Assembly (NCBI RefSeq): GCF_963921235.1
Contig: NC_086108.1
Coordinates: 54,748,001-54,812,000 of the forward strand
Direction: 5' to 3'
DNA length: 64,000 nucleotides
Source of the DNA: Mobula hypostoma
Taxonomy: Eukaryota
Made by a program: the position numbers and the translations under genes. How positions within the stretch are numbered: the stretch's first letter is position 1; the number at the start of each line of letters is the position of its first letter. Below are positions 6,341-64,000 of the stretch, piece after piece. Under the pieces are notes generated by a model that saw only the letters and a program-made list of their open reading frames with translations, was not told the origin of the DNA and made no database searches.

Positions 6341-7611
6341 CAATCACAAACGAGAAAATCTACAGATGCTGGAAATCCAAGCAACACACACAAAGTGCTG
6401 GAGGAACTCAGCAGGCCAGGCAGCATCAATGGAAAAGAGTACAGTTGATATTTTGGACCAAGACCCTTCATCACGACTGGAGGAAAAAAAGATGAGGAGT
6501 TAGAAGGGAGGGGAGGAAGAAGCACCAGCTGATAGGTGAAACTGGGACGGGGGAGGTGTGAAGTAAATTGCTGGGAAGTTGATTGGAGAAAGAGATACAG
6601 GGCTGGAGAAGGGGGAATCTGATAGGAGAGGACAGAAGGCCATGGAAGAAAGGGAAGGGAGAGGAGCACGACAGGTAGGCGATGGGCAGGCAAGGAGATG
6701 AGCTGAGAGGGAAAAGGGGATGGGGAATAGAGAGGGGGTGGGAGGAATTACTGGAAATTTGAGAAATCAATGTTCATTTCATCAGGTTGGAGGCTCAGGT
6801 TGGACATGGGAATGGGGCGGGGAATTAAAATGGGTGGCCACTGGGAGACCCCGCTTTTTCTGGTGGACAGAGTGCAAGTGTTTGGTGAAGCAGTCTCCCA
6901 AGCTATGTTGGATCTCACCAATGTACAAGAGGCTACACCGGAGCACACCTGCCCCTACGCCTCCCCCCTCACTGCCATTCAGTGCCCCAAATGGTCCTTC
7001 CTGATTAAGCATTGCTTCACCTGTGAATCTGTTGGGGTCATCTATTGTATCTCGTGCCCCCAGTACTAAGCTCCAACAGCCAGAAAAAGCAAGATCACCC
7101 TGTGGCCACCGATTTTAATTCCGCTTCCCATTCTCACTCCGACACATCCATCCATGGCCTCCTCTGCTGCCATGATGAGGCCACACTCAGGTTAGAGGAA
7201 CAAAGCCTTGTGTTCCTTTCTTGAACTTCCGGTAATACCTCACCCCCTTCTCTATTCCCTATCTCCCTCTTTCCCCCTCTCACCTTATCTTCTTGCCTGC
7301 CCATCACCTCCCTATGGTGCTTCTCCCCCCCCCCTTTTCTTTCTTCCATGGCCTTTTGTCCTCTCCTATTAGATTCCCTCTTCTCCAACTCTGTATCTCT
7401 TTCACCAATCAACTTCCCAGCTCTTTACTTCACCCCTCCCAGTTTCACCTATCACCTTGTGTTTCTTCCTTCCCTCCCTTCTAAATCCGTCTTCTCATTA
7501 TTTTTTCACCAGTCCCGTTGAAGGGTCTCAGCCCGAAACATCGGCTGTTTACTCTTTTCCATAAATGCTGCCTGGCCTGCTGAGTACCTCAGCATTTTGT
7601 GTGTGCTATAA
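6341..7611. mobile_element. Two Penelope-like 3' fragments in inverted arrangement
   Basis: GIY-YIG remnant CSLLYIGE...LPVATHFNS on - (6782-7012) and YCISC on +; termini 6370-6480 and 7508-7605 are reverse complements; agagtactc repeated at 6332-6340 and 7612-7620 (candidate TSD). Confidence 0.8.
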
Positions 7612-14364: not shown

Positions 14365-14593
14365 AACACACATCAAAGTTGCTGGTGAACGCAGCAGGCC
14401 AGGCAGCATCTCTAGGAAGAGGTACAGTTGACGTTTCAGGCCGAGACTCTTTGCCAGGAGTCCTGACGAAGGGTCTCAGCCTGAAACGTCGACTGTACCT
14501 CTTCCTAGAGATGCTGCCTGGCCTTCTGTGTTCACCAGCAACTTTGATGTGTGTTGCTTGAATTTCCAGCATCTGCAGAATTCCTGTTGTTTC
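14365..14593. mobile_element. PLE-derived fold-back insertion with hammerhead motifs
   Basis: ~95-bp inverted arms (14365-14459 / 14461-14555) plus PLE 3' tail; candidate TSD aacctacgtaa / aacctatgtaa (14356-14366, 14594-14604). Confidence 0.85.
14459..14494 (+). ncRNA. Minimal type-I hammerhead ribozyme motif, intact core
   Basis: agtc-CTGACGA-agg(gtctcag)cct-GAAA-cg-TC-gact; predicted GUC cleavage after 14490. Confidence 0.75.
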
Positions 14594-14846
14594 AACCTAT
14601 GTAAATTGTATTCTCTCTGGGAGAAAGTGGTCAGTAAATTCTGATGGAAATTAATATGCTGATGTTTCTGAGGTTACAGATTATCTGCATCATGCCTTGA
14701 GTGTAAAATCTAGTGATACCTTTGGAGTATTTTGCCTTTTTCTCCACCTGTCAAGGGCTTTTAAAGCAAAATAGGATTTTTCTTTTTATAAAGTAATATC
14801 TTTAATTTTAAAATATTACTAATTTTAAATTTCTTAAATCCTAAAG

Positions 14847-20879: not shown

Positions 20880-22134
20880 GTATTGATGTAATTCTGTCTG
20901 AGAGGGTATACAATTGATATTATATGATCATGAAGACACGTAGTCCTCTTTTATTGTCATTTAGTAATGCATGCTTCATATTTTTGAAATATTGTTCATA
21001 TTTCAATAGTCATGAGTGTAATGTTCGGTTTGGGCACAATTTCTGCATCTCCTTTGCTTGACAGATAACTAATTGATAATGGCATTGTATATTGAGGTAA
21101 GTACTGGATAGTGTTTTCTTGGTACTGGGACTGGGCATGGTTTGACTGGTAGGAAGGTAGTATGTTGTATGTAGTTTGATGTTGGAGAAAATTTATGTGT
21201 AATTTTTTCAGGTTATTAACTGAGTAGGATAAAAGTAATGAATAATTCAGATATTCCACAGTTAGCTCTTGTACAGTTATCAATTTTTTAAAATTTAGTA
21301 ATAGTTGAGATGTGTGCTGCCATTTACTGTAGCTATCACCAACAGATAATGACCTTGCAAATTTACATATGGGGACAGATAAATCTTTTTAAAACAGAAA
21401 AGCCTAGATTTCTTGATGTTAAGAAGGATTATTGTTTCCTCATTTCTGAATAGCAGAACAATTGATCTTGGCTTCCAGTGCAAAGCTTTGCATTTTGGGG
21501 TGCTTTTGTGACTATTCTAATACACAAGACCCCTCCATCTCCAGGTTTGCTTTCCAGATTTCTACAGTTCATTTCCATTCAGTGAAGCTTGGACATGCTG
21601 AAGCTTACCACATAATGCAAAAAGCAGGAAGAGAGTTTGATATGAGCAAGGGACAGCTTTTAAACATTTGTGGGGTGAAGGAGGGTTTTACTGTAGATTA
21701 CATTTATCAATTTGATCAAACTTGTATTCAATGGTATCAGTCTAAGAAAAGAAGCAGGCAAAGACAGCCTGTGTATCAAATTTCATGATTTTTAGGGCAT
21801 TCAAAACACCTAACAGCAAATAAAATTCTTGTTAAGATTGGTCCATCTTGTAATGTACTTATGAAGTTATGCAACCAGTTTATACACACCAAGATCCAAC
21901 AGATAGTATAGTGATCAGGTTATCTATTCATTGTGATATTAGCTGAAGAGTGTACAGTATGTTGGATAGGCACAGGGAACAATGTGCTTACTTTAGAAGA
22001 TAAATGGCTCAGTATAATTTCTCAATGACGTATAGCATTTCCGACTGTGCGATACTCAGTGTTGAATAGGAGCAACACACATCAAAGTTGCTGGTGAACG
22101 CAGTAGGCCAGGCAGCATCTCTAGGAAGAGGTAC

Positions 22135-22170
22135 AGTCAACATTTCGGGCTGTGACCCTTCGTCAGGACT
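22135..22170 (-). ncRNA. Hammerhead motif in the PLE 3' UTR, same sense as the PLE ORF
   Basis: Minus strand agtc-CTGACGA-agggtcacagccc-GAAA-tg-tt-gact. Confidence 0.7.
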
Positions 22171-22775
22171 AACTGAAAGAAGAGCTAGTAAGAGATTTGA
22201 GAGGGGGAAGGGGGAGATCTGAAATGATAGGAGAAGACAGGAGGGGGAGGGATGGAGCCAAGCGCTGGAAAGTTGATTGGCAAAAGAGATATGAGAGGAT
22301 CATGGGACAGGAGGCCTAGGGAGAAAGAAAAGGGGGAGGGGGGAAAAGCCCAGAGGATGGACAAGGGGTATAGTCAGAGGGACAGAGGGAGAAAAAGAAT
22401 GTGTGTATATAAATAAATAACAGATGGGGTACGAGGGGGAGGTGGGGCATTAGCGGAAGTTTGAGAAGTCAATGTTTATGCCATCAGGTTGGAGGCTACC
22501 CAGACGGAATATAAGATGTTGTTCCTTCAACCTGAGTGTGGCTTCATCTTTACAGTAGAGTAGGCCGTGGATAGACATGTCAGAATGGGAATGGGACGTG
22601 GAATTAAAATGTGTGGTCACTGGGAGATCCTGCTTTCTCTGGTGGGCAGAACATAGGTGTTCAGCGAAACGACCTCCCAGTCTGCGTCGGGTCTCGCCAA
22701 TATATAGAAGGCCACATCGGGAGCACCGGATGCAGTATATCACCCCAGCCGACTCACAGGTGAAGTATCACCTCA

Positions 22776-30008: not shown

Positions 30009-30168
30009 GCAACACACACAAATGGAAAAAAGTCAGTGCCAAAGGGTTTCGGCCTGAAACGTTGACTGTACTTTTTTCCACTGATGCTTCCTGGCCTGCT
30101 GAGTTCCTGCAGCATTTTGTGTGTGTTGCTTGGATTTCCAGCATCTGCAAATTTTCTCTTGTTTGTTG
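30009..30168. mobile_element. Short PLE-derived fold-back remnant
   Basis: gcaacacacacaaa / tttgtgtgtgttgc inverted ends, partial hammerhead (gggtttcggcctgaaacgttgact), near-TSD gaagaata(g)aagg. Confidence 0.7.
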
Positions 30169-30529: not shown

Positions 30530-31330
30530 CAGGGGAACTTGGCAGGTCAGGCAGCATTTAAGGATGGAAATACAGTAAATAGCTAACATTTTTGGCCAAG
30601 GCCCTTGATCAGGACAGGAAAAGAAAGGGTACAATATGAGAAATTGGCAGGTGATAGGTGGAAGCAGTAAAAAGTTGGAAGAAAAAAGAATGTAATAGGT
30701 GAGGACAATGGAATAAAGGAAAGGAGGTATGGAACTGGAGGGAGGTGAAGGGCAGGTCATGAGTGTGGGAAAGGAGAAGAGAAGGGGTGAGAGAGCTGCC
30801 AGAATGGGAGAAAACAGAAATGGTGGTGTTGGTGGTGGAGTTAGGGCTGGGGGGGGAGGTGGAGGAAACAGAGGAGAGTGGTTGTCAGAAGTTAGAGAAA
30901 TCAATGTTCATGCCCTCTGGTTGGGGAATACACAGAGAATAAGAGGTGTTGCTCCTCCAACCTGGCTTTGCCCCCATCGTGGCAGTAGAGGCCATATCCT
31001 CTCCTATCAGATTTCTTCTTCATCCCTTCCTTTACCTTTTCCACCTATCTGCTCTCAGTTTCTCACATGAAGCCCCCTCCCCCACCAACCCACCTTCCCC
31101 TTCAACTGTTCTCATCTATCAGCTGCCAGTTTGTACTCCTCTCCTATTCCCCCCCAACACCACCCCCACACGACCACCACCTTATTCTGGCTTCTGCCCC
31201 TTCCTTTCCAGTCCCGATGAATAGTCTGAAATGTTGACTATCCATAGATGCAGCCTGACCTGCTGAGTTCCTCCAGCGTTTTGTGTGTGTGTGTCTCAAG
31301 ATTTCCAGTATCTGCAAAATTTCTGTCAGT
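30530..31330. mobile_element. Old inverted pair of PLE 3' ends
   Basis: Purine-rich then pyrimidine-rich halves; PLE terminal sequence at both ends in opposite orientation. Confidence 0.65.
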
Positions 31331-42069: not shown

Positions 42070-42219
42070 TCAACACACACAAAATGCTGGAGGAACTCAG
42101 CAGGCCAGGCAGCATCAATGGGAAAGAGTACAGTTGAGATTTTGGGCTGAGACCCTTCGGCAGGCTTGGATTTTTGTGTTGCTTGGATTTACAGAATCTG
42201 CAGATTTTCTCTTGTTTGT
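42070..42219. mobile_element. PLE-derived fold-back insertion
   Basis: Perfect 12-bp TSD gataggaaagga (42058-42069, 42220-42231); inverted PLE end plus sense tail. Confidence 0.85.
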
Positions 42220-53996: not shown

Positions 53997-54173
53997 CTAC
54001 TGGATTGGATTGAAGGGAAAGAAAGAAATATACGAGCATTACTGTCAACTATGCACACTGTTTTATGGGAAGGGGAAACAAAATGGAAGCCTGTTGGCAT
54101 GGCAGATCTCGTAACTCCCGAACAAGTGAAAAAAGTCTATCGGAAGGCAGTACTTGTTGTTCACCCCGATAAG
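53997..54173 (+). CDS. DNAJC6: Auxilin J-domain exon ([24 protein letters not shown]...[13 protein letters not shown])
   Basis: tttcag acceptor, AAG|gtaagt donor; HPD motif; near-identical to the auxilin J domain. Confidence 0.97.
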
Positions 54174-55655
54174 GTAAGTTCTACAATTATCTGGTATCAA
54201 TACTTGGTAATCTTGATTAACTTTTGCCTCCTGCAAGCAGTTGCTGATGCATTGCAGGTAATAGACCATAGACAACATAGTCCTGAATTTCCATCTTCAG
54301 AATGGCTCTGGCAGCCTTTGACAGAAATTGAAGGTGGGAGTGTTGATTTGGTTTCTGCTGCATGCAGTGTGAAGTAGCTTTAACATGTTTTGTCATTTGA
54401 CATACTATGTCATTTGATTTTAATTGCATTTCAGTTCTGAATTTGTTCACCATGCAGTGGATTATGAATTTTGAAATCTAACAGTTCGCATAAGGCAATC
54501 CACCAATGGCCCACCTGACAGGCAAAGTTTTTTTGCCACAGTAAAGATGAAAATCATAAACCAGGAAATGGAAAACACATCTTGCTCTCAGTACTCCTGA
54601 AGTTAATAGTGGAAAGAGCCATAAATTGCTTTAAAAAATCTGTTGGAAAAAGTTGCTGGTGATATGTGTGTTGCTTGAAATTCCAGCATCTGCAGATTTC
54701 CTCGTGTTTGCGCTTTTAAACTGTTAGAGGAACTTGGTGGGTCTGGCAACATCTGTGGAGACAAAGGGATAGTCATTAATTTAGGTGAAGACCCTGCTTC
54801 AGGATTAAGAGTGTAGGCAGGAGATTGCCAGCATTCAGAGTTCAGAAGAGGGCTATGGAAGGGGCTTCCATGTGATGGATGAAACTAGGTGAGGAAGGAG
54901 ACGGAGATTGGGTCTGGTGGAGGTGGAGGAGGAGGATTGGGTGGAGTCTGGAATCATTGGCTGCTGGGTGATGTTAGAGAAAGAGGTGCCAGATGGAGTC
55001 AGGTTGGTGGGAGAGAGCAAAGGATAGAGATAGACACAAAGCTGGAAGATGAGCAGAAGGAAGAGGTTGCAGATACTCGAGTCTGATAAGGAAGGTGATT
55101 GGTGGAACGAGGTAAAGGAGGAATGAGGGACCAACTGGAGAAGGGGATAAGAGCCAGTAGATGTAGTGTGTGGGTGAGAGGAATGAATTTGGGGTTGGTG
55201 GGGCATAAGGAGAGGAAAATGGAGCAATGGGAGTTTGGGTGACTTGGAAAATTGTTTGTACCATTGACGACTATCTCAGGTGAAAAAATAAGGTTATTTA
55301 CCTCTACTTAGCTTTTGGTATTCCTTTGCTTCTATACATGCTACTTGAGTTTGTTCAGGAGTTTTTTTTCCCATTGCCGATTTAGCAACTGTTGTCTCTT
55401 ATATCTACAGGAGCATTTGCATTTGTAATCTTTAGATGCTCCTTTGACATCTATTCGAAATGGATTTACTATTATAACATATCTTGAGATACAGTAGAAA
55501 ATTTGTTGTGCATACTGTTCATGCAACTCAAATCTTTGTTTTTATCTTGTTCTACATCAATATAATGTAGAAATTAAGTATAACAGCAATAAAGAAAGCA
55601 ACACTCACAACAGGCTGGAGGAACTCAGCAGGTCGGGCAGCATTCGTGGAAATGA

Positions 55656-55695
55656 TCAGTCAACGTTTCGGGCCGGAACCCTTCGTCAGGACTGA
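55656..55695 (-). ncRNA. Minimal hammerhead ribozyme motif, intact core, antisense
   Basis: Exact reverse complement of 55753-55792. Confidence 0.75.
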
Positions 55696-55752
55696 AGAGG
55701 GAAGGGGACCCTCCCCCCCACCTTCTTTATAGGGCCTCTGCCCCTTCCCTCT

Positions 55753-55792
55753 TCAGTCCTGACGAAGGGTTCCGGCCCGAAACGTTGACTGA
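55753..55792 (+). ncRNA. Minimal hammerhead ribozyme motif, intact core, DNAJC6-sense
   Basis: tcagtc-CTGACGA-a-ggg(ttccgg)ccc-GAAA-cg-TT-gactga; 6-bp stem I; predicted cleavage after 55786. Confidence 0.78.
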
Positions 55793-55949
55793 TCATTTCC
55801 ACGAATGCTGCCTGACCTGTTGAGTTCCTCCAGCGTGTCGTGAGTGTTGCTTTGACCCCAGCATCTGCAGAGTATTTTGTGTTTAAATAAAGAAAGGGTC
55901 GTGCAAGTAAACAATAAGGCACAAAATCATAGCGAAGTAGCTGAGTTCA

Positions 55950-56850
55950 GGAGTCCTTTTTATTTTGGAGAACTACTTAGTAGTCTTATAACAGTGGATA
56001 GAAGCTGTCCTTGGTTGTATGTGCTTTCAAGCTTTTGTATCTGCTGTCCAGTGGGAGATGGAGATGGAGGAATATTTGAGGTGAAGCAGTCTTGATTATG
56101 CTAGCTGCTTTACTGAGGCAGCAAGAAGTATAGATAGATGCCATGAAACGGAGACTCTGATATTCTGACCTGTGTTCACAATTCTCTGCAGTTTCTTTGT
56201 GGTCATGTGTGAGCAGTTTTCATACTAAGCTGACGTGCACCCAGGTTCTATAAGTGTATCAATAAAAAAAAAATTGGTAGGTATTGACAAGGACATGCCA
56301 AAATTCTTTAGCCTCCTGAGGAGGTAGAGGCATTGTTGAACTTTCATGGTCATGGTATCTACGTGATTGGACCAGGACTGGCCGGTAGTGATGTTCGCTC
56401 CTTGGACCCCGAAGTTCTCAATCTGAACACCATTGATGTAAGCACTATGTGCACCATACCCCTTTCTGAAGTCAATGACCAGTTCTTTAATTTGCTGCTA
56501 TTGAGGGAAAGATTGTTGTTATAACCCTGTTTTACTATGCTCTCTAATTTTTCCTGACCTCTGACTCATTGTTAAGAGATGTGGCCCACTGCGGTGGTAT
56601 CACCTGCTAACATAAATGGCAGAACCTGGCCATGCAGTCATAAGTGTACAGAGAGTGGTGTACGGAGCTGAAAATCCAACCTTGTGGAGCATCAGGGTTT
56701 AGAATAATTGAGTTGTTACTACCTACCCTTATTGCAGTCTGTTGGTCAGAAAATCAAGGATCCAGTTGCAGAGGGAGGTGTTAACTCCTAGGGTCCAGAG
56801 TTTGGTCATAAGTTTGCCTGGAATTACGGTATGGAAGATGGAACTGTAGT
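55950..56850 (-). mobile_element. Rex1/Babar-like LINE remnant
   Basis: Similar to the 4470-5290 remnant (aaggatccagttgcagagggagg, ctgaagtcaatgacca). Confidence 0.6.
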
Positions 56851-62402: not shown

Positions 62403-64000
62403 TTAAAAAAGAAGTATAACAGAGCTAAGGTGAGTGGGAAGACGGATGATTAGGAAATTTTTAAGGAGCAACAGAACTTAACTGAAAAGGCAATACGGGG
62501 AGAAAAAATGAGGTATGAACGCAAGCTAGCTAGGAATATAAAGGAGGATAGCAAAAGTTTTTTTAGGTATGTGAAGAGAAGGAAGATAGTTAAGAACAAT
62601 GTTGGGCCCTTGAAGAATGAATTGGGAGAAATTGTTATGGGAAACAGAGAAATGGCAGACGAATTTAATAAGTACTTTGGATCTGTCTTCACTAGGGAAG
62701 ACACAAGCAATCTCCCAGATGTATGGATGGGCCAAGGACATAGGGTAACAGAGGAACTGAAACAGATTGACATTAGGAAGGAAATGGTGATGATTAGACT
62801 GATGGGACTGAAGGCTAACAAATCCCCAGGTCCAGATAGTCTGCATCCTAGGGTACTAAAGGAGGTGGCTCTGGAAATTGCGGATGCATTGGTGATCATT
62901 TTCCAATGTTCCTTAGATTCAGGATCAGTTCCTGAGGATTGGCGAATGGCTAATGTTATCCCACTTTTTAAGAAGGGAGGGAGAAAACAGAGAACTATCA
63001 CCCTGTTAGCCTAACATCAGTAGTGGGGAAGATGCTAGAGTCCATTATTAAAGATGAAATAGCGGCATATCTTGATAGCAGTGATAGGATTGGGCCGAGT
63101 CAGCATGGATTTACCAAGGGCAAATCATGCTTGACTAATCTATTGGAGTTTTTCGAGGATGTAACCAGGAAGATAGACGCGGGAGATCCAGTGGATGTGG
63201 TGTACCTTGACTTTCAGAAGGCATTCGATATGGTACCACATAGGAGATTGGTGGGTAAAATCAGAGCTCATGGCATTGGGGGGAGGATATTGACATGGAT
63301 AGAAAACTGGTTGGCAGATAGAAAGCAAAGGGTAGCAGTGAATGGGTGTTTCTTGGAATGGCAGGTGGTGACTAGTGGGGTGCCACAGGGCTCGGTATTG
63401 GGACCACAGCTGTTTACGATTTACGTCAATGATTTAGAGGAAGGCATTGTGAATAACATCAGCAAGATTGCTGATGATACTAAGCTGGGTGGCAGTGTAA
63501 CATGTGAAGAGGATGTTAGGAGAATTCAAGGTGACTTGGATAGGCTGGGTGAGTGGGCAGAAACTTGGCAGATGGCGTTTAGTGTGAATAAGTGTGAGGT
63601 TATTCACTTTGGGAGCAAGAACAGGAAGGCAGATTATTATCTGAACTGTGTGGAGTTAGGTAAGGGAGAAATACAAAGAGATCTAGGAGTACTTGTTCAT
63701 CAGTCTCTGAAGGTGAATGAGCAAGTGCAGCAGGCAGTGAAGGAGGCTAATGGAATGTTGGCCTTTATTACAAAGGGAATGGAGTACAAGAGCAAGGAAA
63801 TCCTTTTGCATTTGTACAGGGCCCTGGTGAGACCGCACCTGGAGTATTGTGTGCAGTTTTGGTCTCCAGGGTTAAGGAAGGACATCCTGGCTGTGGAGGA
63901 GGTGCAGCATAGGTTCACTAGGTTAATTCCTGGGATGTCCGGACTGTCTTACGCAGAGAGGTTAGAGAGACTGGGCTTGTACACGCTGGAATTAAGGAGA
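62403..64000 (+). mobile_element. CR1 LINE, same family as 47476-49985; runs off the right edge
   Basis: MRYERKLARNIKEDSKSFFRYVK, KSPGPDSLHPRVLKE; RT motifs with frameshifts. Confidence 0.95.

Follow-up and report, generated by a model that had tools for sequence, protein, structure and literature searches.

The window, i.e. the whole stretch of 64,000 nucleotides of the Mobula hypostoma genome that was analysed, contains a 287-bp insertion downstream of an exon coding for part of a J domain. The features of the locus are listed in Table 1. As had been claimed from the letters alone, the insertion (55599-55885) is enclosed by a duplication of its target, the 11-bp sequence AATAAAGAAAG being present on both sides, and comparison of the arms confirmed that each of them holds one of two opposed and identical 40-nt motifs. 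The inverted-repeat search returned arms of 113 nt (55595-55707 and 55741-55853) that are 96% complementary and separated by a spacer of 33 nt. The outermost 4 nt of either arm belong to the target-site duplication and the arms inside the element are 109 nt long (55599-55707 and 55741-55849). Four mismatches were found between them (55813/55635, 55820/55628, 55835/55613 and 55839/55609), none of which touches the motif: the reverse complement of 55656-55695 is identical to 55753-55792 of the plus strand over all 40 nt. CpG transitions account for two of these four differences, in line with decay after the insertion. The 36 nt located 3' of the right arm (55850-55885) have no counterpart on the left side, and no microhomology able to explain the joining was found at the junction 55707/55708.

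Table 1. Features of the insertion and of the upstream host exon (positions in the window).
Feature	Position	Strand	Basis or remark
Host exon, first part of auxilin-type J domain to HPDK, followed by a GT donor	53997-54173	+	Match to 1nz6
Left 11-bp target-site duplication, AATAAAGAAAG	55588-55598		Sequence reading
Inverted 5'-truncated copy of the PLE 3' end	55599-55707	-	Positions 37-145 from the element 3' end; tail absent
Minimal hammerhead motif, minus strand	55656-55695	-	Predicted cut between 55662 and 55661
Direct copy, truncated in 5' and reduced to the final 178 nt of the PLE	55708-55885	+	93-97% identity to other genomic copies
Minimal hammerhead motif, sense strand of the host gene	55753-55792	+	Predicted cut after 55786
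One-sided 36-nt tail, confined to the end of the direct copy	55850-55885	+	Parallels in the accessible parts of PMC8557442 and PMC11167929
Right 11-bp target-site duplication, AATAAAGAAAG	55886-55896		Sequence reading

The exon at 53997-54173 was aligned with the bovine auxilin J domain (1nz6) with an E value of 1.9e-34, about 58 of the 60 aligned residues being identical. The insertion lies 1.4 kb 3' of the donor of this exon and the motif of its right arm is on the sense strand of the gene. The original prediction located the element in a DNAJC6 intron. An auxilin-type J-domain exon does stand upstream on the same strand, but searches of 54.2-64 kb with short motifs and with Pfam on 83 plus-strand frames, which are a weak test, did not reveal the exon coding for the remainder of the domain, and the intronic position of the insertion would follow from the upstream exon and its GT donor. 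Farther downstream of the J-domain exon, a 343-aa open frame (62972-64000, plus strand) runs off the end of the window; it strongly matches RVT_1, with an E value of 1.7e-27, and is another retroelement.

The origin of the insertion was traced by comparing the 287-nt query with its own genome, which gave 1144 first-look candidates. Among the 40 of these 1144 that were scored, most match only positions 110-287 of the query, i.e. the right arm and the tail, with 93-97% identity, and four other fold-backs of similar size are the exceptions. The copies extend upstream into sequence that they share with each other, their 5' breakpoints being scattered at distances of 189 to more than 725 nt from the 3' end that they all share, which finishes in ...TTTTGTGTTTA. 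Such variable 5' breakpoints combined with a common 3' end indicate a retroelement subject to 5' truncation.

The coding part of this retroelement was read in longer copies. In the locus L031 (6055-8681), a match to RVT_1 was obtained at L031:6477-7526 (E = 8.3e-11, 42.4 bits for a cut-off of 29.6). The element's own protein compared with the Pfam GIY-YIG model gave an E value of 0.19 and 12.5 bits, below the threshold of 22.6. The C-terminal region of L031 matches the end of a fish protein, P0001 (BLASTP, 2e-11), and the matching stretch of P0001 is a Pfam GIY-YIG domain (E = 8.6e-11); the GIY-YIG assignment rests on this one homologue, the sole match of the homologue search among longer proteins. 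The residues VIY...YIGET...R...E...N are readable, together with C-x2-C and H-x5-H. The DKG motif upstream of the core reverse transcriptase (RT), named as diagnostic in the accessible part of PMC8557442, is present as IKPADKGG in 10 of the 11 longer copies (L064-L074), the eleventh being truncated. A C-x3-C-x2-C linker is visible between the RT and the endonuclease (EN), and its sequence suggests an element of the Neptune/Nematis type. The full element has a length of about 3.6 kb, and at 3/11 loci (L064, L066 and L070) a fragment of the 3' end, in direct orientation, adjoins the full-length 5' end, forming a partial tandem or pseudo-LTR (pLTR). Taken together, the RT, the GIY-YIG homology, the DKG motif, the linker, the 5' truncation and the partial tandem correspond to an endonuclease-bearing (EN+) Penelope-like element (PLE), according to the list of features given in the accessible part of PMC8557442. 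In L070 (C5:96990587-96993934, minus strand), a stop-free frame crosses the entire 3.3-kb locus, and the ORF starts with MPTLKKF... directly after the upstream tail piece. This open frame suggests that the family was active recently.

According to the excerpts of PMC8557442 at hand, PLE insertions often carry an inverted 5'-truncated copy beside a direct one, as well as a tail of 30-40 bp at one end only. In the first sample of family copies, the inverted arm ends 32-47 nt before the 3' end in 13/13 composites and the direct copy reaches the 3' end. A duplication of 8-15 bp surrounds the whole composite, which measures 273-2881 bp, in the 12 judgeable cases, 11 of them being clear and one having 2 mismatches. 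The second sample was chosen solely by the last 99 nt of the element and overlaps partially with the first. An adjacent inverted partner was present there in 20 of the 29 copies, and the last 29-63 nt were missing from 16 of the 17 evaluable inverted partners; in the remaining one, L054, the tail is also found on the inverted arm. For the mini fold-backs, duplications of 9-14 bp were found in 7/7. The form of the locus is the commonest insertion form of its family and corresponds to a single event. The idea of a fold-back element of its own kind had to be abandoned, the locus having the two-armed form that insertions of this protein-coding PLE usually take.

The orthologous site was recovered in a related organism. 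A contig of 791 nt (run X9, record 25) spans 55300-55539 and 55893-56191 of the window, with 48 nt between the matched blocks versus 353 nt in the window. The insertion is absent from the site of the related organism, as observed in one contig from one run. The empty target rebuilt from the window has an A+T content of 71%, versus 59% for the window, and this value fits the A+T target preference reported for the Anolis PLE protein in the accessible part of PMC11167929.

These results lead us to consider, with a probability of about 0.88, that 55599-55885 is a single 5'-truncated insertion of an EN+ PLE, that its two arms likely arose from priming by both nicked target strands and that its motifs are passengers, most likely inactive. 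The proposed scheme of two nicks and two start sites derives from in vitro work on another PLE clade. In the accessible part of that study (Frangieh et al. 2024, PMC11167929), the Anolis PLE protein cleaves the two strands of the target in vitro and extends them, and reverse transcription begins at two neighbouring internal sites, the interval between them being the tail. By analogy, the element's protein would nick the two strands of an A+T-rich target at positions separated here by 11 bp, and each 3'-OH would prime cDNA synthesis at one of two adjacent internal start sites on the RNA. The outer start site would give the direct copy with its tail (55708-55885) and the inner one the tail-less inverted copy (55599-55707). 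Synthesis of the two cDNAs would have stopped prematurely, at 178 nt from the end for the direct copy and at 145 nt for the inverted one, and they would then have been joined at 55707/55708. Two other routes were considered and rejected. An inverted duplication bearing a tail at one end would not result from snap-back self-priming, and a ribozyme-cut RNA cannot have been the template of the short copies, as both arms of the mini fold-backs pass position 99, the cleavage site.

The motifs carried by the arms were compared with the minimal hammerhead ribozymes (min-HHR) of PLEs, which are defined without helix III (Cervera and de la Pena 2014, PMC4209133). Each motif consists of helix I (UCAGUC/GACUGA), CUGACGA followed by one extra A, helix II (GGGU/GCCC), GAAA, a palindromic ACGU replacing helix III, and U17. 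The CUGANGA and GAAA boxes, H17, a helix I in the range of 4-6 bp and helix II are all present, and so are the other features described in PMC4209133, namely the extra nucleotide between A9 and 10.1, the G10.1-C11.1 pair and the palindromic 15.2-16.2. The description of the motif as a Penelope-type minimal hammerhead with a palindromic ACGU, thought to act as a dimer, is in agreement with that paper, which also reports motifs paired on opposite strands at distances of 100-700 bp. The locus motifs share with the published PLE min-HHR this class without helix III and this opposite-strand pairing. In the Schistosoma min-HHR families, helix II has 7-8 bp, whereas that of the locus motif is short, with 3 G-C pairs and one G-U.

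The min-HHR descriptor gave 21 matches in 163,847 bases (window and loci) versus 0-2 in 20 block shuffles, at least 18 of the 20 shuffled runs giving zero; these 21 matches are homologous copies of repeats and not independent events. The motif and the approximately 60 nt that follow it form an island conserved among four divergent families (alignment A1), the upstream sequences of which are unalignable. No covariation of the stems was found among the four families of this alignment, whose stems are the same and whose differences concern only loop 2 and H17. Likewise, no compensatory change was found among 51 family arms covering the motif, the variants corresponding to single-sided decay. Every feature of the motif is kept in 18 of these 51 arms, and the losses are mostly due to CpG decay. 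The hammerhead motifs of the locus are passengers, representing the conserved min-HHR of the family. The blocks 55610-55640 and 55796-55826 (GGAACTCAGCAGGTC...GCAGCAT and its complement) receive the deepest pile-up of contigs from four other organisms, and this post-ribozyme block is common to very abundant repeats in related genomes.

The check with the Rfam covariance models was negative: the hammerhead models gave no match at E<=10 in the 1501 nt and 65 nt searched, and none at the gathering score in the window. The hammerheads had been called intact, which is correct for the sequence descriptor, all the elements of which are present, but finds no support in the covariance models. This mismatch is expected because the motif has no helix III. 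The Rfam search produced 32 matches, nearly all of them to microRNA-hairpin models below threshold and on both strands, which we read as the signal of a generic hairpin.

The folding of the corresponding RNAs was predicted. The whole 287-nt element folds at -234.8 kcal/mol versus -93.3 +/- 5.6 kcal/mol for 200 shuffles (z = -25). In the minimum-energy fold of the 40-nt monomer (-14.8 kcal/mol), the core residues G5-G8 are paired with the cleavage site, and the ribozyme-competent fold is at -12.4 kcal/mol. The double-hammerhead fold is at -23.1 kcal/mol versus -34.7 kcal/mol for the minimum of the dimer. In a transcript of the locus, each motif is predicted to pair with its perfect antisense within a 109-bp hairpin more than 200 kcal/mol (about 220) more stable than the ribozyme fold, these thermodynamic values being silent on protein-assisted or co-transcriptional folding. 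Whichever strand is transcribed, the antisense arm is made first. The predicted folds, with the whole hairpin at -234.8 kcal/mol, support what had been stated earlier, namely that the sense motif should be trapped by the upstream arm. They give no support to the companion proposal that the sense copy could cut the nascent DNAJC6 pre-mRNA, as both motifs are buried in the predicted hairpin; the stability of this hairpin and the earlier synthesis of the antisense arm make a cut in the auxilin pre-mRNA unlikely.

The activity of such motifs has been assayed in other systems. Monomers of min-HHR were inactive and dimers had a low activity (PMC4209133). The Anolis PLE motif is described, in the accessible part of PMC11167929, as active only with the element's protein and dispensable for insertion in vitro, and the same excerpts report no RNA-seq ends at the cut site. 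On the basis of the predicted folds, the locus is most likely devoid of both ribozyme activity and function.

Other explanations of the locus have to be weighed against a single PLE insertion. In one of them, the sense hammerhead (55753-55792) would be an active intronic ribozyme that cuts the auxilin pre-mRNA during its synthesis, either by itself or together with another copy. The motif is perfect for the descriptor and located on the sense strand of the gene, and PLE hammerheads can cleave with the element's protein (accessible part of PMC11167929). We nevertheless judge such an activity extremely improbable: a motif devoid of helix III needs a partner copy and the nearest ones are tens of kb away (14459, and 22171 on the other strand), transcription produces the antisense arm before the motif and the resulting hairpin is predicted to be about 220 kcal/mol more stable, published min-HHRs showed no activity as monomers and a low one as dimers (PMC4209133), no Rfam hammerhead model is matched, and the position is not conserved, the site being empty in the related organism. 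The same near-perfect 109-bp hairpin could designate a hairpin-RNA gene, from which small RNAs resembling microRNAs or siRNAs would be produced, or a substrate of ADAR, and many microRNA models are indeed matched below threshold, the best with 50 bits for a gathering score of 82. All these matches remain under the gathering score and are symmetrical on both strands, as for any long hairpin; moreover, there are thousands of similar loci, the site is not conserved, and any such RNAs would be a by-product. No paper on small RNAs from Penelope hairpins appeared among the entries listed by a literature search. This reading of the locus is in our opinion very unlikely.

The long inverted arms and the flanking duplication are also those expected from a DNA transposon of the Foldback or MITE type, in which the arms would be terminal inverted repeats and the hammerhead-like motif would be due to chance. 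That interpretation is already contradicted and retains almost no credit, as the two ends differ, a single one bearing a tail, the arms are the 3' end of an RT-encoding element, their lengths vary from about 60 to more than 690 nt with constant outer ends, and the length of the duplication is not fixed but ranges from 8 to 15 bp among copies. Finally, two independent PLE insertions could have landed head to head by chance, since copies of the family are very numerous and 4 of the 109 arm positions are mismatched. Against this coincidence, which seems to us barely credible, one duplication encloses both arms here as in 11-12 of the 12 other composites and in 7/7 mini fold-backs, and the tail is regularly missing from the inverted arm; 2 of the 4 differences between the arms are CpG transitions, which fits decay after the insertion.

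Conserved intronic hammerheads have a stable helix III, match the Rfam models and are kept at orthologous sites. The locus has in common with them a hammerhead motif on the sense strand, downstream of a protein-coding exon, but its motif has no helix III, no Rfam match and is missing from the site of the relative.

A particular class of junctions was found at the 5' edge of the ribozyme. The pattern of two facing ribozyme cores within 0-6 nt occurs in at least 515 places of the own genome, versus 0 for the reversed-pattern control. In the sampled copies, the arms meet inside the ribozyme in 7 of 29; 4 of these 7 share the terminal base of their inverted arm, namely the G of GUCCUGA located at 130 nt from the 3' end. 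With a spacing scan restricted to the family, 52 places were obtained for gaps of 30-59 nt, 8 for gaps of 60-70 nt and 15 for gaps of 71-100 nt. Among the 50 listed places of the 30-59 scan, the longer arm ends at positions 129-132 in about 23, an approximate count made by eye. The arm ends of the mini fold-backs, for example in L034, L050, L061, L062 and at 14365-14555 of the window, pile up at TCAGTCC/TTAGTCC, 2-3 nt upstream of C3 and at a distance of 129-131 nt from the 3' end; we take this sequence to resemble the Pol II initiator consensus. This pile-up may be explained by a run-off where the element's own RNA begins, or by a stop at an RNA structure. As a tentative and rather doubtful extension, the 5' edge of the ribozyme might mark the start of the PLE template RNA, the hammerhead region doubling as promoter and leader; the mini hairpins might then be run-off copies from the RNA 5' end, and the longer arms of the window might come from read-through RNA.

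Further sequences related to PLEs are present in the window. A second fold-back, from a different family, occupies 14365-14594; its arms (14365-14459 and 14461-14555) have 95 nt, are 93% complementary and stand 1 nt apart. It possesses a one-sided tail and a duplication of about 10 bp (AACCTAYGTA). The hammerhead of its right arm (14459-14494) is intact for the descriptor and the core of the left-arm one is mutated. The part 14365-14555 of this fold-back turns at the same 5' edge of the ribozyme as the mini fold-backs. A third min-HHR copy, belonging to another family, is located at 22134-22171 on the minus strand, and its helix III has decayed to AUGU. The conserved post-ribozyme block is matched more weakly at 6359-6438, 30043-30149, 31248-31290 and 42071-42115.

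The single PLE insertion found at the locus is of a known kind, i.e. an ordinary, lineage-specific, two-armed PLE insertion. As far as the accessible parts of PMC8557442 and PMC11167929 describe them, the EN+ PLE units (Penelope/Poseidon, Neptune, Nematis) resemble the parent of the locus by their RT and DKG motif and probably by their C-terminal GIY-YIG, and its family by the heavy 5' truncation, the partial tandems and the adjacent inverted truncated copy. They resemble the locus itself by the one-sided tail (36 nt here), the A+T-rich target and the hammerhead near the 3' end, and there is no difference of kind between them and the locus. In the same excerpts, the ORF of the Anolis Poseidon starts inside the ribozyme, whereas the ORF start of the family studied here is read outside it. 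The animal non-LTR retrozymes, as described in the accessible part of Li, Clavereau and Pollet 2026 (bioRxiv 10.64898/2026.07.22.740005), share with the locus a hammerhead-bearing sequence related to the pLTRs of PLEs. They are tandem and non-coding units, whereas the locus is the truncated end of a coding element and is inverted, not tandem.

The locus is a decaying, lineage-specific scar of a retroelement, with no sign of cutting or regulating host RNA. With its intact duplication and the empty site of the relative, it offers a clean example of the two-armed, one-tailed footprint of PLEs. This footprint separates PLEs from LINEs and from DNA transposons and helps annotation, such hairpins being easily miscalled as MITEs or microRNA precursors. 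The counts of arm stops obtained across the family may aid work on the RNA starts of PLEs and on the joining of their cDNAs.
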